DNA of 64,000 nucleotides from Chlorobiota bacterium (GTDB lineage Bacteria; Bacteroidota; Ignavibacteria; Kapaibacteriales; NICIL-2), in the NCBI GenBank assembly GCA_044224515.1, contig JBGAKH010000002.1:355817-419816 (forward strand). The letters run 5' to 3'. Below the pieces are notes generated by a model. The model saw nothing but the letters and a program-made list of their open reading frames with translations, ran no database searches and was not told where the DNA came from. Of this stretch, positions 24,399 to 63,950 are shown piece by piece. The position numbers were made by a program, and so were the translations under genes. Positions within the stretch are counted from its first letter, which is position 1. Every line of letters begins with the position of its first letter.

Positions 24399-25298
24399 AT
24401 GAAGTCTCAAAAGCAAGGTTCTGCACTAGTTAATCTCGTTGGCTGGTATCGCGATAACTCTCCACTGGGTTTTGGTAAAGCAAAGCTCAGCAAGTTTGCT
24501 TTAAAAAGCCTCGGCATAGCCGAAGTTGAGGCACAATCAAACGACGGCTGTACTTTTCTCCTGCGAATGCCGGATGATGCCTCGTGGTTCAGCATCTACT
24601 TTGATGGAAATTTCGAGACCGGCACTTTGGAGCTGATGAAGAAGGTTGTCAAGTCCGATGACGTGATTCTTGACATTGGCGCAAACCTCGGGTGGTATAC
24701 AGTGCATCTTGCCAAGTTGCTTCCTATCAGGCACTGTCACGCATTTGAGCCGGTACCGAATATCTATGACAAACTGAAAAAGCATTGTGAAATCAATGGA
24801 GTAAGTTCCAAGGTCACCTTGAATCAATGTGCGCTTGGAGATCAAAACGGAACGATTGAATTACATACCTTTCCGGATTTACCACATGGACACTCGTCAA
24901 TCTCTACTCTTGGTAAGACGAATTACGTGACGTCCCATGCCCCGATGTTCAAACTCGACGATTTCATTGCCTCAAACAATCTCGAAAAGATTGATTTTAT
25001 TAAAATGGATGTCGAGGGTGCCGAAGCGCTGGTACTAAGTGGAGCACTTGAGCTATTAAAACGTAAAGATCCTCCGGTGTGGGTCATTGAATTGAACATC
25101 GAGACAGCAGCAAGTTTTGGACATCGCCCTGCGGACCTATTGAATACACTGTTGTCTCATAATGATTATGACTTGTACAAAGTAGATCGTGGTTGGGGAT
25201 CTACGAGAAGAATGAAATCGGTGGACGATTATGAAAATGGTGACAATGCTGTCTGTGTCCCAAAAACAAAGAACGATCGCATGCAGTGGCTAAGGTAA
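24399..25298 (+). CDS. FkbM-family SAM-dependent methyltransferase
   Basis: ILDIGANLGWYT (SAM motif I), AFEPVPNIYDKL, IDFIKMDVEGAE are hallmarks of Methyltransf_21/FkbM. Confidence 0.75.
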   Translation: MKSQKQGSALVNLVGWYRDNSPLGFGKAKLSKFALKSLGIAEVEAQSNDGCTFLLRMPDDASWFSIYFDGNFETGTLELMKKVVKSDDVILDIGANLGWYTVHLAKLLPIRHCHAFEPVPNIYDKLKKHCEINGVSSKVTLNQCALGDQNGTIELHTFPDLPHGHSSISTLGKTNYVTSHAPMFKLDDFIASNNLEKIDFIKMDVEGAEALVLSGALELLKRKDPPVWVIELNIETAASFGHRPADLLNTLLSHNDYDLYKVDRGWGSTRRMKSVDDYENGDNAVCVPKTKNDRMQWLR

Positions 25299-25572
25299 AG
25301 CTGAAACTGACCAATCTTGAACCAACCATTCAGCACATTGTCATTTGCTGATGTCACTGTAACTTTTCTTGTCAATAGTTGCTCTGAAGAACGGCTTCAT
25401 CGAAGTATCGATGAGGCTGTTTCTATGTTGGCTAGTTATGCTGAGTGTATTTAATGGGATAATTCTTTTGAAAACGTCAAAATGTCCGTACCGTGGAGCA
25501 TGGTATTTGAAGCTTCCTTCTGTATCTTCGTCACAGGCGGACATTTTACTATTTACCACTATTGGAGTCACC

Positions 25573-26352
25573 ATGAAAACTCTTCTTGCCGCACTTTTTT
25601 GCTCACTGCTGCTTATTAGCAATTCTGGTTGCAGAAAGTTTGATAATGTCTCGGATCCTTCCGACACTACAAGCTGTAATACGAATTACTCAATGTTATT
25701 TAACGGACGTACTTCCTATATGGAGGTACCAAGCACCCCTGAATTGAATCTCTGTGAAGGAAGTTATACCATTGAAACTTGGGCTTTCTTCAATGAGTAT
25801 TACGGTGGATGGCAGGTACTACTTGCTAAGGATAACATGGACAGCAATACAGAGTGGCTTTTAACGGCAGATGGTCCGACACATCGCTTTCGTTTTCAAA
25901 CCAGGGATTTTTCAACCGTGCTTTACAGTACAACACCGGTGATGTCAGGAAGATGGTATCATTTGGCAGCCGTTCAAGACTTTGCCAACAATACTGTGAA
26001 ACTGTACGTCGATGGCGTTTTGGAATGCGAAAGGAACTTGGTCGGTAGAATAGTCACTACAAATTACCCGATTCGATTTGGCACTCGCATTAATGATATC
26101 ACTGCAGGCAGTCCGTGGTATGTTGTCGATGGGCAAATGGATGAAGTGCGAATTTGGAATGTTGCTCGCACTGCAGAGCAAATCAATTCCAACAAAAACA
26201 AGACATTAAAAGGAAACGAATCCGGTTTGGTAGCGTACTGGAGCTTCGACGAAGGTAAAGGTACAAAAGCTGTTGACCATACATCGCACGGACATGATGC
26301 GGCTATGTTTGCATCGCCATTCTTTATGATCACAAATTGTCCTGTGAAATAA
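25573..26352 (+). CDS. Lipoprotein with LamG-like (concanavalin A-like lectin/glucanase) jelly-roll domain
   Basis: Lipobox LLLISNSGC. The pattern WYHLAAVQDFANNTVKLYVDGVL...DEVRIWNVARTAEQI is the LamG_3 signature. Paralogous to the C-terminal domain of the next gene. Confidence 0.6.
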   Translation: MKTLLAALFCSLLLISNSGCRKFDNVSDPSDTTSCNTNYSMLFNGRTSYMEVPSTPELNLCEGSYTIETWAFFNEYYGGWQVLLAKDNMDSNTEWLLTADGPTHRFRFQTRDFSTVLYSTTPVMSGRWYHLAAVQDFANNTVKLYVDGVLECERNLVGRIVTTNYPIRFGTRINDITAGSPWYVVDGQMDEVRIWNVARTAEQINSNKNKTLKGNESGLVAYWSFDEGKGTKAVDHTSHGHDAAMFASPFFMITNCPVK

Positions 26353-26459
26353 CAATCAGATATTGTTGAGCTACGACCCATGCTGACCATGAGGTCAGCA
26401 TGGGTCATTCTCATCACTGCGGCACAATGTTAAAATACATTTCCAACATTCACACACCT

Positions 26460-27773
26460 ATGAACTTACGGTCATTTCTACGTACCTGGACATCAGTTCT
26501 AGCCATCACAATAATTGGACCGTTGTTCTGGTCATGTAGTGGTGACAGCGTTACTGCACCAACCACAGGAACTATTTCAGGTGTGGTGAACATTGACACT
26601 GGCGGAGTTGCCGCGGGAGCTCTTGTGTATACAGTACCCCCTTCTGCATCCGTGTTGTCAGACTCTCTTGGCAGATATACAATTGGTGACGTTTCAGTTG
26701 GAACGGTCACAGTCTATGCGTTGAAAATTGGTTGTGACACAGCGATGGTATCGGTTAACGTCCTATCGTCGAAAGTAACGACAACGGACATTTTACTTCA
26801 TGTGTCAAAGCAAAACAACGCGCCCAATCAAGCCAGATTGGTTGCCCCGGATTCAATTGCAACGCATGTATATAAAGACAAAATTTTGCTTAAGTGGTCG
26901 TGTTCAGATCCCGATAACGATGCGTTGAACTATGATGTTTACATGGGTACCGGCTCAAATCCCGGCGATTTGAAGTTAGTGGCTAAGGGCTTGACTACAT
27001 CGGAGTATAGCGCAACATTACAACAAGGATATGTTGAATACCAATGGCGCGTAGTTGCTCGAGATCAACTTGATAAGGCCAGTACAAGTCCAACGTGGAG
27101 GTTTGTGTCAAACTCTGAATGGGCACTTCACTTCGACGGCCTATCACAGTACGCGCAAGTCCCTTCCTCAACAGCACTGAATTTGTCGTCACAAGACTAC
27201 ACGATTGAGATGTGGGTCTACATCGACTCATTTGACCCCGAGTGGCAAGTTATTATGACGAAGGATGCGACGAATAGCAACACAGATTATCTCGTGCAAG
27301 CAAATCACGACGGAAGGATTTTGTTCCAGTCAAGAAACTTGCAGAACATGGTCTACTCTAAGAATTATTTTAAGGCTGCCACTTGGTATCACCTTGCATT
27401 TCAGCAAAGTCTTGATGAGAACAAGTTAAGAATATTTGTTAACGGTTCTTTAGTAACGGAAGCTGCGCTTGCGGGATCCGCGGTGACGACTAGTTCGCCT
27501 CTCTTGATCGGAGCTAGAATAAATTCTGCTTCAGGTGGATTACCAACCGCCTTATTCGCCGGTAAGATTGATGACCTGCGAATATTTAACACAGTGCGCA
27601 GCGAAGCGCAGATAAACGCCGATATGACGACTCCCTTAAGCGGTTCAGAAGTTGGTCTTATTGCAGGGTTTAACTTTAATGAAGGACAAGGCAACACATC
27701 ACAAGATGTTAGCGCTAACCTAAACGTCCTTACTTTGCGTAACAATCCCACTTGGGTGGTTGGTCATAAATAA
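26460..27773 (+). CDS. Secreted protein: CarboxypepD_reg-like domain, FN3-like domain, LamG-like domain
   Basis: Signal peptide. GTISGVVNIDTGGVAAGALVYTV (carboxypeptidase regulatory-like beta-sandwich). A PKD/FN3-like middle region. C-terminal WYHLAFQQSLDENKLRIFVNGSL...DDLRIFNTVRSEAQI LamG signature. Confidence 0.6.
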   Translation: MNLRSFLRTWTSVLAITIIGPLFWSCSGDSVTAPTTGTISGVVNIDTGGVAAGALVYTVPPSASVLSDSLGRYTIGDVSVGTVTVYALKIGCDTAMVSVNVLSSKVTTTDILLHVSKQNNAPNQARLVAPDSIATHVYKDKILLKWSCSDPDNDALNYDVYMGTGSNPGDLKLVAKGLTTSEYSATLQQGYVEYQWRVVARDQLDKASTSPTWRFVSNSEWALHFDGLSQYAQVPSSTALNLSSQDYTIEMWVYIDSFDPEWQVIMTKDATNSNTDYLVQANHDGRILFQSRNLQNMVYSKNYFKAATWYHLAFQQSLDENKLRIFVNGSLVTEAALAGSAVTTSSPLLIGARINSASGGLPTALFAGKIDDLRIFNTVRSEAQINADMTTPLSGSEVGLIAGFNFNEGQGNTSQDVSANLNVLTLRNNPTWVVGHK

Positions 27774-57273: not shown

Positions 57274-57442
57274 GCAGAACGCATAGAATGTCGGCCGATA
57301 CGGGATAAAGTCCAAAGTGTGGATTTTTGGCAAATTCTGCATGTTCTGTACGAATCTGCATCACTTTTCCACAAAAATTGTCGCTTTGGTTTGCTCACAA
57401 TCCCCAAAAATGCTATTTTCGAAGCCTTGCAAAATTAAGGAT

Positions 57443-57517
57443 GGGCGCTTAGCTCAGCTGGTTCAGAGCATCTGCCTTACAAGCAGAGGGTCGGGAGTTC
57501 AAATCTCTCAGCGCCCA
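57443..57517 (+). tRNA. tRNA-Val (anticodon TAC)
   Basis: Manual cloverleaf fold. Acceptor GGGCGCT/AGCGCCC, D-arm GCTC-AGCTGGTTCA-GAGC, anticodon stem TCTGC/GCAGA with loop CTTACAA, variable loop GGGTC, T-arm GGGAG-TTCAAAT-CTCTC, discriminator A. No encoded CCA. Confidence 0.9.
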
Positions 57518-57525
57518 CATCCAAA

Positions 57526-57557
57526 AAGCCGTTTTTCGAAAGAAGAGCGGCTTTTTT
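57526..57557 (+). terminator. Rho-independent terminator after the tRNA
   Basis: AAGCCG ... CGGCTT stem, followed by TTTTTT. Confidence 0.6.
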
Positions 57558-57888
57558 CGTATGTGGTTGATAGAATATGGCTTCCAAAAAAGCAGCAGCT
57601 AAGTGGCGCGGACGAAAGGCTAAAATTTAAAGACGAAGCCGGGAGACGCGATGCCATGGAACAGACAGGCGCTGAAGCAATATTGATGTATCCAACGAAA
57701 CCACGTAGAAGAGCTCTTTAGTCATGGCAAGAGTGATTCAGACTGATTACTCGACATCACACAATAATTAAGCATCTTTGAACTCCGGCGCATGACGAAC
57801 TGCCTCAACGATCCTCTACGAGTCGAAGAGAATCGTAGTGCGGCGCAACTCTGCAGGATTATTCTTCCCACTATCCGGGGACACATCG

Positions 57889-58572
57889 ATGCAAACATTG
57901 CCCTCCTACATTACATTTGTTTTTTCGCTCACAACTGTAGCTACTCTTTGGTTTTTTAGCGCGGCTACGGCATACAAGAAATGGACATTTATCGTCGTTG
58001 CAGTGTGGTTAGTTTTTCAGGCCATAGTTGGGATGTCGGGATTCTACACAATTACGCATACTTTCCCTCCACGCTTTTTAGCTCTTGTACTGCCACCGGC
58101 GCTCTGCATCATAGCACTCTTCAGCACGAGCAAAGGCAGAGCGTACCTCGACAGCATGGACCTCAAAGCACTGAGTCTCGTTCACACAGTGCGCATACCG
58201 GTCGAAATCGTCCTCTACTGGCTCTACCAACAAAAAATGGTACCACAGCTCATGACCTTTGAAGGAAGCAACTACGACATTCTTTCGGGTATGACAGCGC
58301 TCGCTGTGTATTTCATGTTGTTCAATGGTTCACCACTAAAAATCAGACTCCTTGTGGTGTGGAACGTTATCTGTCTCGGACTACTCTTGAACATTGTCGG
58401 CAAAGCGGTGTTGTCCGCTCCCTTTCCCTTCCAACAGCTTGCCTTTGAGCAACCTAACATCGCCGTTCTGTACTTCCCTTTTAACTGGCTCCCATCGTGC
58501 GTAGTACCCCTTGTACTACTCTCACACCTTGCGTCACTACGCCAACTTTTCAGAAAGCTACGAGAGAAGTGA
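57889..58572 (+). CDS. Hypothetical polytopic membrane protein (about 7 TM)
   Basis: Hydrophobic segments throughout (FVFSLTTVATLWFFSAA, FIVVAVWLVFQAIVGMSGF, LALVLPPALCIIALF, and others). No recognisable motif. Confidence 0.45.
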   Translation: MQTLPSYITFVFSLTTVATLWFFSAATAYKKWTFIVVAVWLVFQAIVGMSGFYTITHTFPPRFLALVLPPALCIIALFSTSKGRAYLDSMDLKALSLVHTVRIPVEIVLYWLYQQKMVPQLMTFEGSNYDILSGMTALAVYFMLFNGSPLKIRLLVVWNVICLGLLLNIVGKAVLSAPFPFQQLAFEQPNIAVLYFPFNWLPSCVVPLVLLSHLASLRQLFRKLREK

Positions 58573-58574
58573 GA

Positions 58575-59140
58575 CGAACGCCGGCTTCGCTGGCTTCGAC
58601 TTCGCTGGCTTCGGCTTCGCTCAGCCAGCGAGGAGTTAGAGTGGGATCTGCTTTACCGGCTGGCTTCGGCAAAGCAGATCACTGCCTGAGCGAAGCCGAA
58701 GCCAGTGTTGGCAAAGCAGATCACTGCCTGAGCGAAGCCGAAGCCAGCCGGCAAAGCAGATCGCTGGCTGAGCGAAGCCGAAGCCAGCCGGCAAAGCAGA
58801 TCGCTGGCTGAGCGCAGCCGAAGCCAGTCGGCAAAGCAGATCACTGCCTGAGCGCAGCCGAAGCCAGTCGGCAAAGCAGATCACTGCCTGAGCGCAGCCG
58901 AAGCCAGTGTTGGCAAAGCAGATCGCTGGCTGAGCGAAGCCGAAGCCAGTGTTGGCAAAGCAGATCGCTGGCTGAGCGCAGCCGAATCCAGCGTTGGCAA
59001 AGCAAATCACTGCCTGAGCGCAGCCGAATCCAGTGTTGGCAAAGCAGATCACTGCCTGAGCGAAGCCGAAGCCAGTGTTGGCAAAGCAGATCGCTGGCTG
59101 AGCGCAGCCGAAGCCAGCGTCGGCAAAGCAGATCGTTCAG
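58575..59140. repeat. Tandem array of 11 full units plus one partial 40-42 bp direct repeat, preceded by an inverted partial copy. Each unit can fold into a hairpin.
   Basis: Units start at 58668, 58710, 58750, 58790, 58830, 58870, 58912, 58954, 58996, 59038, 59080 and 59122 (partial). Consensus: GGCAAAGCAGATC[ACTGCC/GCTGGC]TGAGCG[A/C]AGCCGAA[G/T]CCAG[TGTT/CC/TC/CGTT]. 58580..58667 carries reverse-complement copies (CTTCGCTGGCTTCG x2; GCTCAGCCAGCGA). There are no unique spacers, and the 40-nt units break every reading frame. Confidence 0.85.
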
Positions 59141-59142
59141 CT

Positions 59143-60672
59143 TTACGGTCTCACATGCACTAGTGGAATGTCACTCGAAAACGTAGGAGACTGAATTGAC
59201 ACGACATACACACCGAACGGAAGTCCTGACAAGTCCACCATGAGATCATACCAATTCAGACCAAGAGAGCTTTGCCTGAACTGCACCTGATCTGAACCGA
59301 TTACCAGAGCCCTAGTTCCCACGATGTCATAGACTTCAACTCTTATGGAACTCAAATCAATTGTGTTTGCGATGAACGTTGTCACAGACACAGTAGTTGA
59401 TGACGGATTAGGAACCACCTTGCGCGGTTCGATAAGAGCGCTCTCCAGGCGATTGTGAACCGGAAGATCATCGCCGACCGGAACCATAGAGTCTGGCTTC
59501 ATTGTTAGGATTGCCGGCGTCGATCTGTAGGACCATGCACAAATCATTCCTTCACGAGAGTTCTTTATCAGTGACGTTGTAACATAGACGTAGGTAGAAT
59601 CGCGGTTGCCATCCTTGAAAAACGCTGGTTTTGAAACAATATAATTCCACGTCTTGCCTGAGTCAGCGGTTATTATGACTTGTCCTCGATAGAACTGAGC
59701 TATCAATTGGCCATCTTCAGTCAGGCTATTCTGGTAGATTTCTCCGTAGTCATCACCATAGGGTAAGACTGCAGCAGTTATCCACGAACGTCCACCGTCA
59801 GTTGTTCGATATATGACATTGTGAGAAGGATCGCTTGTATCGTTGTTCTTGCGAAAACCATGGGCAACTCCAATCGATGAATTGAAGAAGTAAGCGCCAT
59901 TGAACCGATCGTTGTGACTTGTATCAGAGTACACCCCGTCGATCGTAAAGCCTATTCGTGTCCAACTCTTTCCTTTGTCGGTTGTCAAGTAATTAGACGT
60001 TCCCCAGTCCAATGAAAATGGATAGTACTTTTGAACGAGGAAAGAGTTCGAATCAACAACCCACGCACGATATATGAAGTCTAGATCTTTAGGCGAGTTA
60101 GGAATCGTATCATGAACGTGTACCTGACGGAATGTCCTCCCGCCATCGAAAGTAGCCCACGTGATAAAAAGGTGATCTATGCTTGTTATACCTACTAAAG
60201 GTGCCACAGCCGAACTGAACAACACTCTATTGGCAGAGGGTAGCAGAGCTGTATCAAGTTTGTGCCACGTTACAGAGCCATCGTCAGAATAATAAAACCG
60301 CGTACGAACACCTCCCCAGAAATAGTGCAACGAGTCAAGCCTGCATGCACCATTGGTTACGACAGGATCAAATACCGGAACCAGCATCCTCCAATGCCTT
60401 CCGGTATCGTGACTACTAAAAATTTTTGGCTCAGATATTCCAGGTGGAAACGGTCCGTCGGATTTGCGTGTGTATTCAACTATCCCAAAGCCAATTATGG
60501 AGTCTGCGCTATAAACCATTTTCTGAAAGTTCACACCCGAGACCTTCCAATCCTTTGGAACCTGCTCCAGTTGAACAGGAAGCACCTGAGACCATACTGA
60601 TTCTTCGGCCAATGCTATGGAATTTGAGGCAAAAAGGCTAAGACAAGCCAGAGTGATCAACAAGTGCTTCAT
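59143..60672 (-). CDS. BNR/Asp-box repeat (sialidase/Ycf48-like beta-propeller) protein with T9SS C-terminal sorting domain
   Basis: Signal peptide MKHLLITLACLSLFASNSIALA. Asp-box repeats SxDxGxTW: SHDTGRHW, SDDGSVTW, TTDKGKSW, TTDGGRSW, SADSGKTW. The C-terminal ~90 aa are beta-rich and CTD-like (...FGVYVVSIQSPTF...). Confidence 0.65.
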   Translation of the reverse strand: MKHLLITLACLSLFASNSIALAEESVWSQVLPVQLEQVPKDWKVSGVNFQKMVYSADSIIGFGIVEYTRKSDGPFPPGISEPKIFSSHDTGRHWRMLVPVFDPVVTNGACRLDSLHYFWGGVRTRFYYSDDGSVTWHKLDTALLPSANRVLFSSAVAPLVGITSIDHLFITWATFDGGRTFRQVHVHDTIPNSPKDLDFIYRAWVVDSNSFLVQKYYPFSLDWGTSNYLTTDKGKSWTRIGFTIDGVYSDTSHNDRFNGAYFFNSSIGVAHGFRKNNDTSDPSHNVIYRTTDGGRSWITAAVLPYGDDYGEIYQNSLTEDGQLIAQFYRGQVIITADSGKTWNYIVSKPAFFKDGNRDSTYVYVTTSLIKNSREGMICAWSYRSTPAILTMKPDSMVPVGDDLPVHNRLESALIEPRKVVPNPSSTTVSVTTFIANTIDLSSIRVEVYDIVGTRALVIGSDQVQFRQSSLGLNWYDLMVDLSGLPFGVYVVSIQSPTFSSDIPLVHVRP

Positions 60673-60711
60673 GTTTTTGTGGTTTTGAGTGAATAGTTTA
60701 TAGTAAGCAGC

Positions 60712-61377
60712 TTACGGGCATTCTACAGGTCCGCATGGTATAGGAACATAAGTAAAGCCATTCCACCATTGGTAATTCCCCGTGCAAGAAACAGGACCAT
60801 TCGTTGCATAAGACGAATACTCATATCGGGGAGGATCCGGAACTGGACAGGTAGTCGATGGACAACACCACTTATAGTATCGTATGCAATTCACATCAGG
60901 ACCACATGAATAACTAGCGTAGACCTCCTCTTGACTTCCATTTGGAAGCGTTTGAAGTTGCTGTGTGTCGAAAAGTGCAGTAGCACACGCTACACTCGAC
61001 ATACTTGGGAGCAGATATCCAGTATAGGGATCCGGAATCGGACAGTTTGGTACAGACCAATTGAGTCCTCCAGACGCGAGATTGATTCGATCAATGCAAA
61101 TATTGAAAAACGTGCCTTCCATCAAGTCAAGAATAGCGCTCCGAGTGAGTCCTGGGCAGTTTGTCCAATAGTTTACTAGCGTTACAGATGGAGCATAGGA
61201 TCCACCTCCGGAGACCGTGCCGAGGCACAGTTCACAAATCACATAGCAACCTGGGTTCAGAGGTACAGGTAACCAGCCTGTTGTATAGGTAATTGATCCA
61301 GGTGGGCAAGCAGAGCGAACGCTGGTCGGCACCAACATCGCAAAAAACAGAAGGAAAACGAGCAGTGTAGCTCTCAT
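60712..61377 (-). CDS. Secreted cysteine-rich (about 20 Cys) Pro/Gly-rich hypothetical protein
   Basis: Signal peptide MRATLLVFLLFFAMLVPTSVRSA. Repeated CP.. motifs (CPPGS, NCPGL, NCPIPDP, CCPSTTCPVPDP, CGPVECP). Confidence 0.45.
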   Translation of the reverse strand: MRATLLVFLLFFAMLVPTSVRSACPPGSITYTTGWLPVPLNPGCYVICELCLGTVSGGGSYAPSVTLVNYWTNCPGLTRSAILDLMEGTFFNICIDRINLASGGLNWSVPNCPIPDPYTGYLLPSMSSVACATALFDTQQLQTLPNGSQEEVYASYSCGPDVNCIRYYKWCCPSTTCPVPDPPRYEYSSYATNGPVSCTGNYQWWNGFTYVPIPCGPVECP

Positions 61378-61468
61378 ACGTACTCCAATACTATGATGAA
61401 AAAATAGTATCGGGGGCTAGTTTGAATGATCCAACGTTTATACATTAACTATGAAGGTCTGGCATTCA

Positions 61469-61780
61469 TTACCACTGACAACAACTCATCTCACTGAAAT
61501 TCCGGTAGTACTGCATTATCACATCGACGCGACAGCGGGCTATCTTGCTTGCCACGTCGAGCGGAACCCGCGCCTCACAAAGCCTTGAAATGAAGGTCTT
61601 CCTGAACTCATGAAACGCTCTGTTCTTCTTTGGTATGCCTAAAACGAACATTGCTGCATCCAGCCGCTTGCGAAGCATTCTATAGGTCTCTCGCCGGCCG
61701 TCATAACTGAACATCTTACCGCTTTTCAATGCCGGCATGATGATCGCATCAGGATTCATACGCCTCTCATAGAAACTCAC
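61469..61780 (-). pseudogene. Truncated tyrosine recombinase (phage-type integrase): catalytic C-terminal fragment only
   Basis: Contains the HxxR (HEFRKTF) box, a second-Arg region (ARCRVDV) and the catalytic Tyr context IMQYY. It lacks the N-terminal core-binding domain and box I Arg. The upstream side is AT-rich with no ORF. Confidence 0.6.
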
Positions 61781-62870
61781 CTCGCCCTAACTTTTGTCAG
61801 CAAGAATCTGTTAAGTGCGAGTGTGCACGATGCGTTTTTGGACAAAATTAATTGCAGCAAATCGTCTCGCTATCTCCAAGTGCAAAGTTGTCGCCTTGCG
61901 TTTCGCAAGAAGGATATCTATACTGTAGCTACAACAGAACTCGAAATACACTCATACGTAGTTGGTATGGCTTATTCAACGAAAACATAATATTACTATG
62001 TCTGAATAGATTAAATGAGTGCGGTGTGGAGCGCACGCCTTCGTGTGTGGATGGAAGGCTTCGAGAATTTAAAACATGTAAATAGAAGGAAGAAGTAAAA
62101 TAATTATCGATTGCAAAATATATTTACCCTAGGATAGTAACGATTTGTTCATTATTAATTTGAGTCGAGATCACAAAGCTCCAGTGAACACGGTTTAAGG
62201 AGATCTAAGCAATAGCTACCACTTTCACTTTTATGTAAATAGTGAACGTACGCATCCTTGGGAGAGGTTTATGTAGCGTTGAATCAACAGAGAGTGCATA
62301 GTATTTCTATTGGCAAAGTGTCTCACAATAACCTCCATTGTGAGATAGCTTTAAATAGTAGGCAGGTTGAAATTGGGTAGTTTGAAAGTTCGAGCGTCTT
62401 TACGCGCCTCAATCAGTGGATTGCTCCCATATGGTTTGACAAAGACCGTGCTTGGTTATTAAAGGACTTAGCATAATTTTCAGCATGTACTTTGTGCACT
62501 AAACCAACCCTTAGCTCGAATTTAGTTCGCCGGAAAGCACAAAAGGTGTGTATATAATCTTGTAAAAATCCTGACCGTATCCATGGAAAAATATAGGTTA
62601 CATGCTCCCAATCCGGCTCCTTCGAGCTGAAGGCATTGTGCTAGCTGGTCTCAACTATTTGGGTATTATGATCCGGTAGTTTCATTCGCGCTCCCTTTTA
62701 CACTGCTCCACATGCTTCCGACACCATGTCTCGCTTATTCTGCCGTTAGGCCTCTGGTTATGCTAAGCTTGTTGTCATATAGTCATGCAACTGCATGTTA
62801 CCGATCCTTTACACTGACTACAGCCGCACTCTCATAGTTTTGCCTACATTCTGCACTATCAAACTCAATC
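61781..62870. other. About 1.1 kb AT-rich non-coding stretch (probable remnant or boundary of a horizontally acquired element)
   Basis: No ORF above 80 aa on either strand. GC is visibly lower than flanking DNA, with runs such as taaatagaaggaagaagtaaaataattatcgattgcaaaatatattta. Confidence 0.5.
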
Positions 62871-63287
62871 ATGAGAGTACTTTTCATTTGCATTCATAAC
62901 TCTGCTCGCAGTCAGATGGCTGAGGCGTTTGTTCGGGCTGAATCGGATGGTGCTATTGAGGTGGAGTCGGCGGGCTTGGAGGCCGGACGTTTGAATCCTT
63001 TGGTAGTGAAGGCAATGGCCGAGCTGGGTATCGATATCTCGCACCATCAGTGTACCACAGTTGATGAGATCTTGAAAAAGGGGGTTGTGTATACTCATGT
63101 GATTACGGTTTGCGATGAAAGCAGCGCTGAGCGCTGTCCGATGTTCCCCGGTACGAGTACACGTTTGCACTGGAGTTTCGCCGACCCATCGACGCTTGAG
63201 GGAAGTGATGAGGAAAAACTGGCGGCTATTCGTCCAATTCGTGACGATATTCGCCAACAAGTACGTGCATTTCTAGCCACATTGTGA
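62871..63287 (+). CDS. arsC: Arsenate reductase, LMW-PTPase family (thioredoxin-coupled)
   Basis: CX5R P-loop in VLFICIHNSARSQMAEAF, plus the downstream Cys pair (CDESSAERCP) used by the thioredoxin-coupled ArsC mechanism. Confidence 0.8.
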   Translation: MRVLFICIHNSARSQMAEAFVRAESDGAIEVESAGLEAGRLNPLVVKAMAELGIDISHHQCTTVDEILKKGVVYTHVITVCDESSAERCPMFPGTSTRLHWSFADPSTLEGSDEEKLAAIRPIRDDIRQQVRAFLATL

Positions 63288-63290
63288 TCC

Positions 63291-63950
63291 ATGAGTGAAC
63301 AGGGCAAAAAATTGATCGCCGAGTGCGTGGCAACCTTCTTTTTGGTCTTCTTTGGAACGGCTGCTATTGTTGTGGATCAGACCTATCATGGCGTCGTTGG
63401 ACACATAGGTGTATCCATCGTTTTCGGGTTGATCGTCACCATTATGATCTACAGCTTCGGAAGTGTTTCCGGAGCTCATATGAACCCTGCTGTCTCCATA
63501 GCCCTTTTTGTTATCAAACGCATTGAGCTCAAAACATGCCTCTCCTACATAGCCATGCAGGTTCTAGGTGCATTGATAGCTTCGCTTGCTATTAAGTCCA
63601 TGTTTCCCGCCAATGCCACTCTTGGTGCAACGCTTCCTTTAGGGGGCTATTGGCAAAGTGCTGTGCTGGAGTTTGTGATGAGCTTCCTGCTCATGCTCGT
63701 TATTCTGCGCGTTGCTGTGCGCACCCACACTTCAGTGCAGTTAGTCGGTGCGATAGTTGGCTCGGTTGTCTTGCTTGAAGCGCTGATGGGTGGACCTATC
63801 TCCGGAGCCTCTATGAATCCTGCACGAAGTTTGGGACCTGCTGTGCTTGCAGCAAATATTCAAGGACTCGAAATCTATCTGCTCGCTCCTACCCTCGGAA
63901 TGATTTTCGCAGCGAAGCTAGAGGAACTTCTGTTCGGACACCACGCTTGA
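63291..63950 (+). CDS. MIP-family channel (aquaglyceroporin, AqpS/GlpF-like) immediately downstream of arsC
   Basis: Two NPA boxes (HMNPAVSIALF and SMNPARSLGPA). Six TM. 4 bp from the arsC stop. Confidence 0.85.
   Translation: MSEQGKKLIAECVATFFLVFFGTAAIVVDQTYHGVVGHIGVSIVFGLIVTIMIYSFGSVSGAHMNPAVSIALFVIKRIELKTCLSYIAMQVLGALIASLAIKSMFPANATLGATLPLGGYWQSAVLEFVMSFLLMLVILRVAVRTHTSVQLVGAIVGSVVLLEALMGGPISGASMNPARSLGPAVLAANIQGLEIYLLAPTLGMIFAAKLEELLFGHHA

Follow-up and report, generated by a model that had tools for sequence, protein, structure and literature searches.

The window is a 64-kb stretch of DNA with a single tRNA gene, tRNA-Val with anticodon TAC (57443-57518, + strand; ARAGORN; Rfam 71.8 bits), which is the presumed integration target on the attB/attL side. 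A terminator-like hairpin read from the sequence (AAAAAGCCG...CGGCTTTTTT; 57523-57557, + strand) lies directly 3' of the tRNA. Next come an ORF for a polytopic membrane protein (57889-58572) and a tandem array (58668-59134), in the order that the earlier note had described. Among the matches listed in a search of 185,579 species genomes, the best ArgH relative is 57% identical, and tRNA-Val follows argH in 0 of the 36 loci checked.

The membrane protein (+ strand) has 227 residues and no Pfam domain. AF2 models it entirely as helices, about 7-9 in number (pLDDT 76), and a fold search of the model in the PDB found no match. The family is widespread in Bacteroidota; its homologues, at about 60% identity, number more than 5000 and occur in varied chromosomal contexts. 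The GC3 of the gene is 0.539 versus a background of 0.52 ± 0.04, and its tetranucleotide composition falls at the 35th percentile. The gene is thus probably native, and its listing as island cargo was not borne out.

The convergent intergenic gap beyond this gene is occupied by a GC-rich (61%) minisatellite (58579-59134, + strand) in which a partial inverted copy of the array at about 58579-58670 precedes the direct units (58668-59134; 42/40-nt period, 11.3 copies, 92% matches). The repeat has no other copy within the window and forms the left edge of a compositionally atypical block, and two short-read Logan contigs (L083 and L001) break off inside it. The array had been described as a structured repeat, a description that does not hold for the unit itself: single units have z scores of +0.4 to -1.0 versus shuffles, indicating no significant structure, and the z = -7.6 of the whole minisatellite region arises because the inverted copy can pair with the direct units. 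Matches of the array to the Rfam family isrG were rejected as spurious (15-28 bits versus a gathering score of 100); the Rfam scan leaves tRNA-Val only.

The two genes that follow are both on the - strand. The first (59143-60672) encodes a 509-aa secreted BNR/Sortilin-type β-propeller protein. Its assignment as a BNR-repeat T9SS protein was upheld in its first part by a Sortilin-Vps10 match above the Pfam cut-off (E = 5e-11), and the second part fell below threshold, with Por_Secre_tail (PF18962) at 23.7 bits versus a cut-off of 27 (E = 6e-5) and TIGR04183 at 18.4 bits versus 23. Both sub-threshold matches fall within residues 420-496 of 509, at the very C-terminus, and the protein probably carries a T9SS C-terminal sorting domain. 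A PorZ-like gene 10 kb to the right indicates that the host has a T9SS. The BNR protein is a singleton 90% cluster, and its gene has a GC content of 0.459 and a GC3 of 0.457. The second gene (60712-61377) encodes a 221-aa secreted Cys-rich orphan protein with 16 Cys by our count, rather than the 20 claimed earlier. It has no Pfam, PHROG or NCBIfam family, and a search through 5.8 billion proteins yielded just one further sequence, a 99% variant in sample DRR350542. Its GC3 of 0.396 is 3 SD under background. The Cys-rich and BNR genes share a strand, with the former 39 bp upstream, an arrangement which suggests that the two probably form one operon. Taken together, the two genes are at the 98th tetranucleotide percentile. 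Viral-contig scans with the BNR, Cys-rich and membrane proteins recovered no relatives, and PDB sequence searches with three of the proteins returned nothing informative.

A 103-aa ORF (61469-61780, - strand) separates the Cys-rich gene from 1090 bp of AT-rich DNA (61781-62870; 40.9% GC versus 49.6% for the window) that holds no recognizable gene, RNA or repeat. The earlier note had called this DNA ORF-less; it is devoid of ORFs longer than 77 aa, and none of its six frames gave a family match. Its tetranucleotide composition deviates more than that of 300 of 300 random background windows of the same size (100th percentile). A blastn search against phage GenBank entries found nothing. The next genes are arsC (LMWPc/arsC_pI258 type) and a MIP channel gene at normal GC, also as claimed. 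An arsenic-resistance island to the right was considered as the owner of the integrase and rejected because the 10 kb right of arsC and the MIP gene contain no mobile-element genes. Compositionally atypical DNA is confined to 59.1-62.9 kb (98th-100th percentile), which covers the BNR and Cys-rich genes, the 103-aa ORF and the AT-rich DNA and does not touch tRNA-Val. Within 57.9-61.4 kb, where the earlier note had suggested looking for compositional deviation, the BNR and Cys-rich genes deviate and the membrane-protein gene does not.

The 103-aa ORF is a 3' tyrosine integrase fragment, with homology extending over about 61475-61775. The score against PF00589 alone is 17.9 bits, under the Pfam gathering score of 27.1, the match to phrog_1 has E = 1.6e-6, and a word-indexed homologue search gave no candidates. 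The assignment is solid only because an exhaustive HMMER search identified 25 relatives among 1.84 billion representatives with a best E value of 1.9e-23. The full-length relatives are tyrosine recombinases of 319-392 aa that match PF00589 above threshold, and the stub aligns to just their C-terminal 80-100 residues. It retains the H-x-x-R motif and the Tyr (equivalents of H276, R279 and Y311 in the relative P0128, by alignment) and lacks the equivalents of R192 (box I Arg), K214 (Lys) and everything before about residue 235. The missing upstream part corresponds to about 70% of the protein. The earlier note was right about the retained HxxR...Y motifs and underestimated the loss as the N-terminal half. 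The truncation boundary is sharp and lies near 61775, and the stub is bordered on either side by unrelated sequence. Neither PHROG and Pfam profiles on stop-masked frames nor tblastn with seven full-length relatives as queries (E ≤ 50) detected an N-terminal remnant, either in the AT-rich DNA or across all 74 kb, and no integrase remnant lies directly 3' of tRNA-Val.

The only second sample found to contain the organism, DRR350542, has 99.1-99.6% nucleotide identity, and its 1.6-kb contig preserves the order of integrase stub, Cys-rich gene and BNR gene. Comparison of the two near-identical strains shows 10 of 202 nt differing in the stub versus 12 of 3331 nt elsewhere, a difference of about 14-fold. 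Ten of 14 between-strain differences, including a 1-nt indel, sit in the stub (Fisher p = 1e-7), and the changes include a frameshift. The faster divergence and the frameshift mark the stub as a pseudogene. Together with the absent box I Arg and Lys, this pseudogene drift agrees with the claim that the integrase is inactivated. Judged from these alignments, the stub is a freely drifting pseudogene and the inactivated relic of a tRNA-targeting integrase.

The targets of the integrase clade were read from its relatives. The closest full-length relative, P0128, is 59% identical over the retained part, and the best-scoring one, P0127, is 54% identical over the same part. P0128 is located 119 bp from tRNA-Val(TAC) in locus L090 and is convergent with it. 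Locus L091 is the attP configuration of the same element, and identity between the two loci ends inside the anticodon loop, which defines attP as the 43-nt 3' half of tRNA-Val. In two samples, P0127 is accompanied by a 46-nt 3' half of tRNA-Val(TAC), with no full tRNA, located 110 bp after the stop codon of P0127. The two nearest relatives thus use the 3' 43-46 nt of tRNA-Val(TAC) as attP, and the proposal of a tRNA-targeting integrase is supported for the clade. Two relatives that are more distant, P0129 and one in L097, face a convergent tRNA-Pro(TGG) at 452 and 476 bp, respectively. In 4 of 4 relatives with known context, 0.1-0.5 kb separates the integrase gene from a tRNA with which it is convergent, and these four are the only basis for the target specificity of the clade. 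MAG GCA_016788605.1 and Logan sample SRR10769904 are the sources of the phage-like element of L090 and L091; L110 and L111 carry the P0127 element. These elements are intact, with a full 326-aa integrase and small unknown genes spanning at least 14 kb, among them an SLT-type transglycosylase and weak tail-like matches. DNA and protein comparisons between the window and the two elements detected no similarity beyond the integrase stub and the tRNA; none was detected for the AT-rich DNA.

The tRNA-Val of the window is 97% identical to the tRNA-Val adjoining P0128, and its 3' 43 nt match the L091 attP at 42 of 43 positions. The stub is convergent with this tRNA, the orientation seen in the relatives. 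The tRNA-Val attP of the relatives and the matching convergent orientation argue that the fragment does not belong to an unrelated flanking element. The gap between tRNA-Val and the stub is 3.95 kb versus 0.1-0.5 kb in 4 of 4 relatives, and the claim of a classic tRNA-island layout fails on this distance. Analogous hairpins are part of the elements in L090 and L110, where they sit between the 3' end of the tRNA and the integrase stop codon; the likeness to the hairpin in the window goes no further than the generic hairpin, so it does not establish a common origin.

A direct repeat of the tRNA-Val 3' end had been proposed as the att site. The best local alignments of the 43-nt 3' half to 57.56-64.5 kb score 18-20, and the shuffled-query null is 18.9 ± 2.1; no repeat rises above it. 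The last 24 nt of the tRNA, with up to 3 mismatches allowed, have no second match in the window, and the 91 bp past the stop codon of the stub contain no att or tRNA remnant. A viral-contig scan with the host tRNA-Val 3' half found nothing. As a second copy of the tRNA 3' end is absent even in degenerate form, the end of the island cannot be mapped.

The reading that we favor, and consider probable, is that the locus is what remains, with undefined boundaries, of a decayed integration at tRNA-Val, almost all of the element having been lost. A stub located near the tRNA-Val targeted by its closest relatives is best read as what erosion has left of an old mobile-element insertion. An element belonging to a small, phage-like family of mobile elements would have integrated into the tRNA-Val(TAC) gene, its tyrosine integrase recombining the chromosomal tRNA gene with attP, which consists of the 3' 43-46 nt of tRNA-Val (anticodon loop to acceptor end). 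Integrase genes of this element family end 0.1-0.5 kb from the regenerated tRNA, in convergent orientation. Nearly all of the element would later have been lost, leaving the roughly 300-bp 3' integrase stub; the 1.1 kb of non-coding, AT-rich DNA next to it is probably a remnant too, possibly from the eroded interior of the element, and the displaced tRNA fragment that marked the far end would be gone. The 3.95 kb between tRNA-Val and the stub would be secondary to the integration. The BNR/T9SS and Cys-rich pair, which is compositionally foreign, lineage-restricted and intact, would most likely have been acquired later at this hot spot or be accessory cargo that was retained. We infer from the specificity of the relatives that the ancestor element integrated at this very tRNA-Val, and the order of the later events is likewise a reconstruction. 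Several observations run against the model: the 3.95-kb distance of the stub, the native-looking, widely conserved gene between it and the tRNA, the absence of a second tRNA 3' end and of any att or tRNA remnant in the 91 bp past the stub, the small sample of four relatives, and the AT-rich DNA with no match to the related elements. The position of the membrane-protein gene is not explained by one simple event.

Several other histories were weighed against this relic. It is possible, although unlikely, that the stub belongs to an older element pushed downstream by later integrations at tRNA-Val, whose integrases and att fragments have since been lost. Such accretion explains how the orientation was kept as the distance to the tRNA increased, and it suits the orphan BNR and Cys-rich pair of foreign composition. 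Arrays at a single tDNA are documented, Islander listing 125 tandem arrays of two or more islands (PMC4383910). Against it, the block nearest the tRNA is the native-looking one, and neither the tRNA nor the stub has a further integrase remnant or att fragment next to it.

In the model of the earlier note, a single island spans 57.5-62.9 kb, everything from the tRNA to arsC is its cargo, including the membrane protein and the array, and the integrase was inactivated in place. Such an island would suit the placement of the tRNA at one end and of the integrase relic close to the opposite end, the AT-rich DNA ahead of the normal-GC genes and the tRNA-Val specificity of the clade. We consider this history quite unlikely. 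The integrase gene abuts the tRNA in 4 of 4 clade cases and is distal here, and a simple interior inversion would place it on the + strand, whereas it is on the - strand. The membrane-protein gene, of a widespread chromosomal family, and the spacer are compositionally native, the displaced tRNA fragment is absent, and the sharp cut near 61775 does not resemble decay in place.

It is more doubtful that the interval between tRNA and integrase served as a landing pad that captured a surface module (the T9SS β-propeller and the 16-Cys orphan) together with the 42-nt minisatellite, the module being kept by the host and the element deleted. If true, the locus would parallel, in a Bacteroidota lineage, lysogenic-conversion morons that outlived their prophage, and the minisatellite would mark the recombination junction between native and foreign DNA. 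Finally, the stub could stem from an event unconnected with the tRNA, having come in for instance with the BNR/Cys-rich block or the arsenic-resistance genes, which would make its closeness to tRNA-Val meaningless. This would fit the missing att repeat, the unrelated sequence on both flanks and a compositional island that stops short of the tRNA, but such a coincidence is very improbable: of roughly 40 or more tRNA species, tRNA-Val(TAC) is the one that both nearest relatives use, the stub is less than 4 kb from and correctly oriented to the only tRNA in 64 kb, and the 10 kb to the right hold no mobile-element genes.

The integration relic shows that a heavily eroded tRNA-linked element can still be traced to its target through the specificity of its integrase clade. 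That clade, previously unnamed, is a small group of tyrosine integrases from Bacteroidota-like genomes (25 representatives among 1.84 billion proteins), with 3' halves of tRNA-Val(TAC) or tRNA-Pro(TGG) as attP. For annotation of this uncultured lineage, 59.1-62.9 kb is probably acquired DNA and the 103-aa ORF a pseudogene. The locus represents ordinary biology and opens no new mechanistic question.

Lysogenic-conversion modules such as the gtr operons of P22 and the Shigella Sf phages lie between the integrase gene and the att site. The window resembles them in having intact surface-protein genes between the presumed attachment site and the integrase relic of a decayed element. It differs in that its proteins are unrelated to Gtr, and the interval between integrase and att site is free of genes in the clade relatives with known context (n = 4).

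The tDNA islands cataloged by Islander provide a second comparison (PMC4383910). The attP of the relatives, the 3' part of the tRNA from the anticodon loop onward, is like the anticodon-centered class A, and the window shares the intact tRNA on the integrase-proximal side, here tRNA-Val, with the island downstream of it. The window differs in its lack of a displaced tDNA fragment and in its integrase, which does not adjoin the tDNA and is reduced to a pseudogene of the 3' third or less of the gene. This stub is homologous to the PF00589 catalytic domain, and the complete catalytic set and the N-terminal core-binding domain are absent. The locus would fail the Islander filters (PMC4383910).

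The nearest counterparts are the elements of L090/L091 and L110/L111, which have in common with the window the tRNA-Val(TAC) target, the convergent arrangement of integrase and tRNA and a hairpin at the tRNA end. Those elements are intact, whereas the likeness in the window is limited to the integrase stub and the tRNA. Cryptic or defective prophage remnants (islets) at tRNA hot spots carry truncated integrase pseudogenes. Compared with these islets, the remnant in the window is exceptionally small (about 0.3 kb is recognizable) and is separated from its target by native-looking DNA. It shares with them the neutrally drifting truncated integrase, the near-total loss of element genes and the retention of compositionally atypical accessory genes.

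The window's only tRNA gene by ARAGORN and Rfam is tRNA-Val(TAC) at 57443–57518. To its right lie a + strand gene for an all-helical 227-aa membrane protein (57889–58572), a GC-rich tandem array with 11 units, each 42 or 40 nt long (58668–59134), preceded by 1–2 inverted partial units, and three − strand ORFs. These encode a 509-aa BNR/Sortilin-type protein (59143–60672), a 221-aa Cys-rich secreted protein (60712–61377), and a 103-aa fragment with weak Phage_integrase similarity (61469–61780), the stub. The stub is followed by 1090 bp of AT-rich DNA (40.9% GC, 61781–62870) without a credible ORF, then by arsC and a MIP channel gene of normal GC. The tRNA, membrane protein, array, AT-rich ORF-less DNA and normal-GC arsC and MIP genes listed in an earlier note are all present. 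Its BNR-repeat T9SS protein is of the BNR/Sortilin type, but the T9SS C-terminal domain match is sub-threshold; its 20-Cys protein has 16 cysteines, and individual units of its "structured repeat" show no more folding than shuffled sequence does. tRNA-Val is flanked by an imperfect 20-nt direct repeat of 80% identity (57404–57423, CCAAAAATGCTATTTTCGAA; 57521–57540, CCAAAAAGCCGTTTTTCGAA), which may be due to chance. The arsC gene (thioredoxin type) and the MIP/aquaglyceroporin gene form a pair without arsR upstream, where there is only AT-rich non-coding DNA; downstream are a gene for an ABM monooxygenase and one for a 518-aa protein without family match (window 62871–63950; 3079–5377 of L089, a Logan contig covering the 10 kb right of the window).

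The stub's Phage_integrase match alone falls below the Pfam gathering score, and a word-indexed protein search with the stub returned no relatives. Exhaustive HMMER comparison with 1.84 billion representatives identified 25 relatives at E ≤ 1e-3 (best E = 1.9e-23). Full-length relatives are 319–392 aa with PF00589 above threshold, and the stub aligns solely with their last 80–100 residues. The alignment shows that the stub keeps the H-x-x-R and Tyr positions and that its box I Arg, Lys and entire N-terminal domain are missing, in agreement with the earlier description of a tyrosine-recombinase fragment. No trace of the missing part was detected in the AT-rich DNA or across 74 kb by tblastn with seven full-length relatives (E ≤ 50), or by HMM scans of stop-masked frames. 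Because homology ends sharply near 61775 and no N-terminal trace was found, the stub is a truncation rather than the product of in-place decay. The same organism is present in a second metagenome, DRR350542 (99.1–99.6% nucleotide identity), with the stub, Cys-rich and BNR order unchanged. Ten of the 14 differences on its contig, including a 1-nt indel, fall inside the stub's 202 nt, compared to 12 differences in 3331 nt of neighboring genes and argE-argH (Fisher p = 1e-7). Both secreted-protein genes are conserved, and the stub drifts as a pseudogene. Truncation, missing catalytic residues and excess between-strain differences bear out the claimed integrase inactivation. The stub's clade is very small (25 matches), and Arg-Cys (K[IL]ARC) is nearly invariant at the usual second His/Trp position (the LGH motif) in alignment A1 (P0127–P0139 plus window 61469–61780).

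P0128 is the closest full-length relative of the stub (59% identity). In L090, a locus in a Bacteroidota MAG (GCA_016788605.1), it is positioned 119 bp from and convergent with a tRNA-Val(TAC) 97% identical to the window tRNA, at the edge of a cluster of small unknown genes. The same element occurs in L091, from Logan sample SRR10769904, where int is flanked by element genes on both sides. L090 and L091 are 100% identical as far as a point inside the anticodon loop, and therefore attP is the 43-nt 3′ half of tRNA-Val; 42 of these 43 nt are identical in the window tRNA. In two samples, P0127, the best-scoring stub relative, is followed 110 bp after its stop codon by a 46-nt tRNA-Val(TAC) 3′ half instead of a complete tRNA. 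For two more distant relatives, the distance to a convergent tRNA-Pro(TGG) gene is 452 and 476 bp. The int-tRNA design is the same in 4/4 distinct elements with enough context. These results show that tRNA genes are the targets of the clade, specifically tRNA-Val(TAC) for the members nearest to the stub.

The uncharacterized, tRNA-Val-integrating P0128 element (L090 1–6296; L091 1–13981, on a contig of at least 23 kb) is seen both integrated and as attP, and attP, attL and the crossover region are directly readable. It encodes an SLT-type transglycosylase, gives weak tail-like matches, and is phage-like at best. PHROG matches are missing for almost all of its genes, and the gene directly upstream of int encodes a secreted CAP-domain (PF00188) protein.

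The membrane protein belongs to a well conserved family of unknown function. It has more than 5000 homologs at ~60% identity across Bacteroidota, the same divergence as ArgH against the same taxa (the closest ArgH among the matches listed is 57% identical), in unrelated chromosomal contexts. Family members are polytopic and 225–235 aa long, and an alignment of 37 sequences has 65 invariant columns. The family is not covered by any model in Pfam, NCBIfam or PHROG, and neither PDB sequences nor PDB folds match (AF2 model, pLDDT 76). The gene is host-typical (GC3 0.539 versus 0.52 ± 0.04; tetranucleotide distance at the 35th percentile), and composition turns atypical only right of the array. The BNR and Cys-rich block is at the 98th tetranucleotide percentile, the Cys-rich gene has a GC3 of 0.396, and the AT-rich DNA deviates more than all 300 background samples. 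The foreign-looking block is therefore 59.1–62.9 kb and not 57.5–62.9 kb; the compositional deviation expected of the island was found there but does not extend to the host-like membrane gene. A second low-GC patch, three adjacent + strand genes at 24399–27773 (GC 0.425–0.451; GC3 0.415–0.463; 96th tetranucleotide percentile), deviates as much as the BNR/Cys-rich block and may likewise have been acquired.

The Cys-rich protein is a true orphan whose sole other sequence among 5.8 billion is a 99% variant from DRR350542, and the BNR protein is a singleton cluster. Neither has relatives in viral contigs or in related integrase-bearing elements. The two genes are on one strand with 39 bp between them and are probably co-transcribed. 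Their intactness beside a decaying pseudogene suggests the host uses them.

A 61% GC minisatellite (58579–59134) fills the gap between the convergent membrane and BNR genes, from 7 nt past the membrane gene's stop codon to 8 nt before that of the BNR gene, at the native-to-atypical composition switch. Its units, 42 or 40 nt long, are of either the GATCACTGCC or the GATCGCTGGC sequence type; 1–2 inverted units at the left end form a 28-nt perfect inverted repeat (58604–58631 with 58761–58788). The 64 kb contains no other copy of it. The short-read Logan contigs L083 and L001 end within it, and its copy number in the source assembly may therefore be unreliable.

The stub lies less than 4 kb from the sole tRNA, which is the species used by the stub's nearest relatives, and it is convergent with this tRNA as they are with theirs. 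A coincidence is unlikely, and we infer that this tRNA-Val was once the integration site of an element of the stub's family. The proposed tRNA-targeting island with a dead integrase holds to that extent; the layout departs from the classic one, as 3.95 kb separates the stub from the tRNA and not 0.1–0.5 kb as in its relatives. The 91 bp past the stub's stop codon contain no tRNA-derived sequence, and the att site sought as a displaced tRNA fragment was found nowhere right of tRNA-Val. The layout calls for tandem accretion or some other rearrangement, and the att/int traces expected of either are absent. A simple inversion cannot give the strands seen. No single simple event accounts for the position of the native-looking membrane gene between tRNA and stub. 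The 10 kb right of the window (L089) lacks mobile-element genes. The locus is best explained as what heavy erosion has left of an integrative element specific for tRNA-Val; its boundaries are undefined, and it adjoins a small, probably acquired block of secreted-protein genes. The chief point is that target specificity can be cleanly inferred from a 300-bp pseudogene. The attP design of its clade corresponds to the anticodon-centered attP class described by Islander (PMC4383910).
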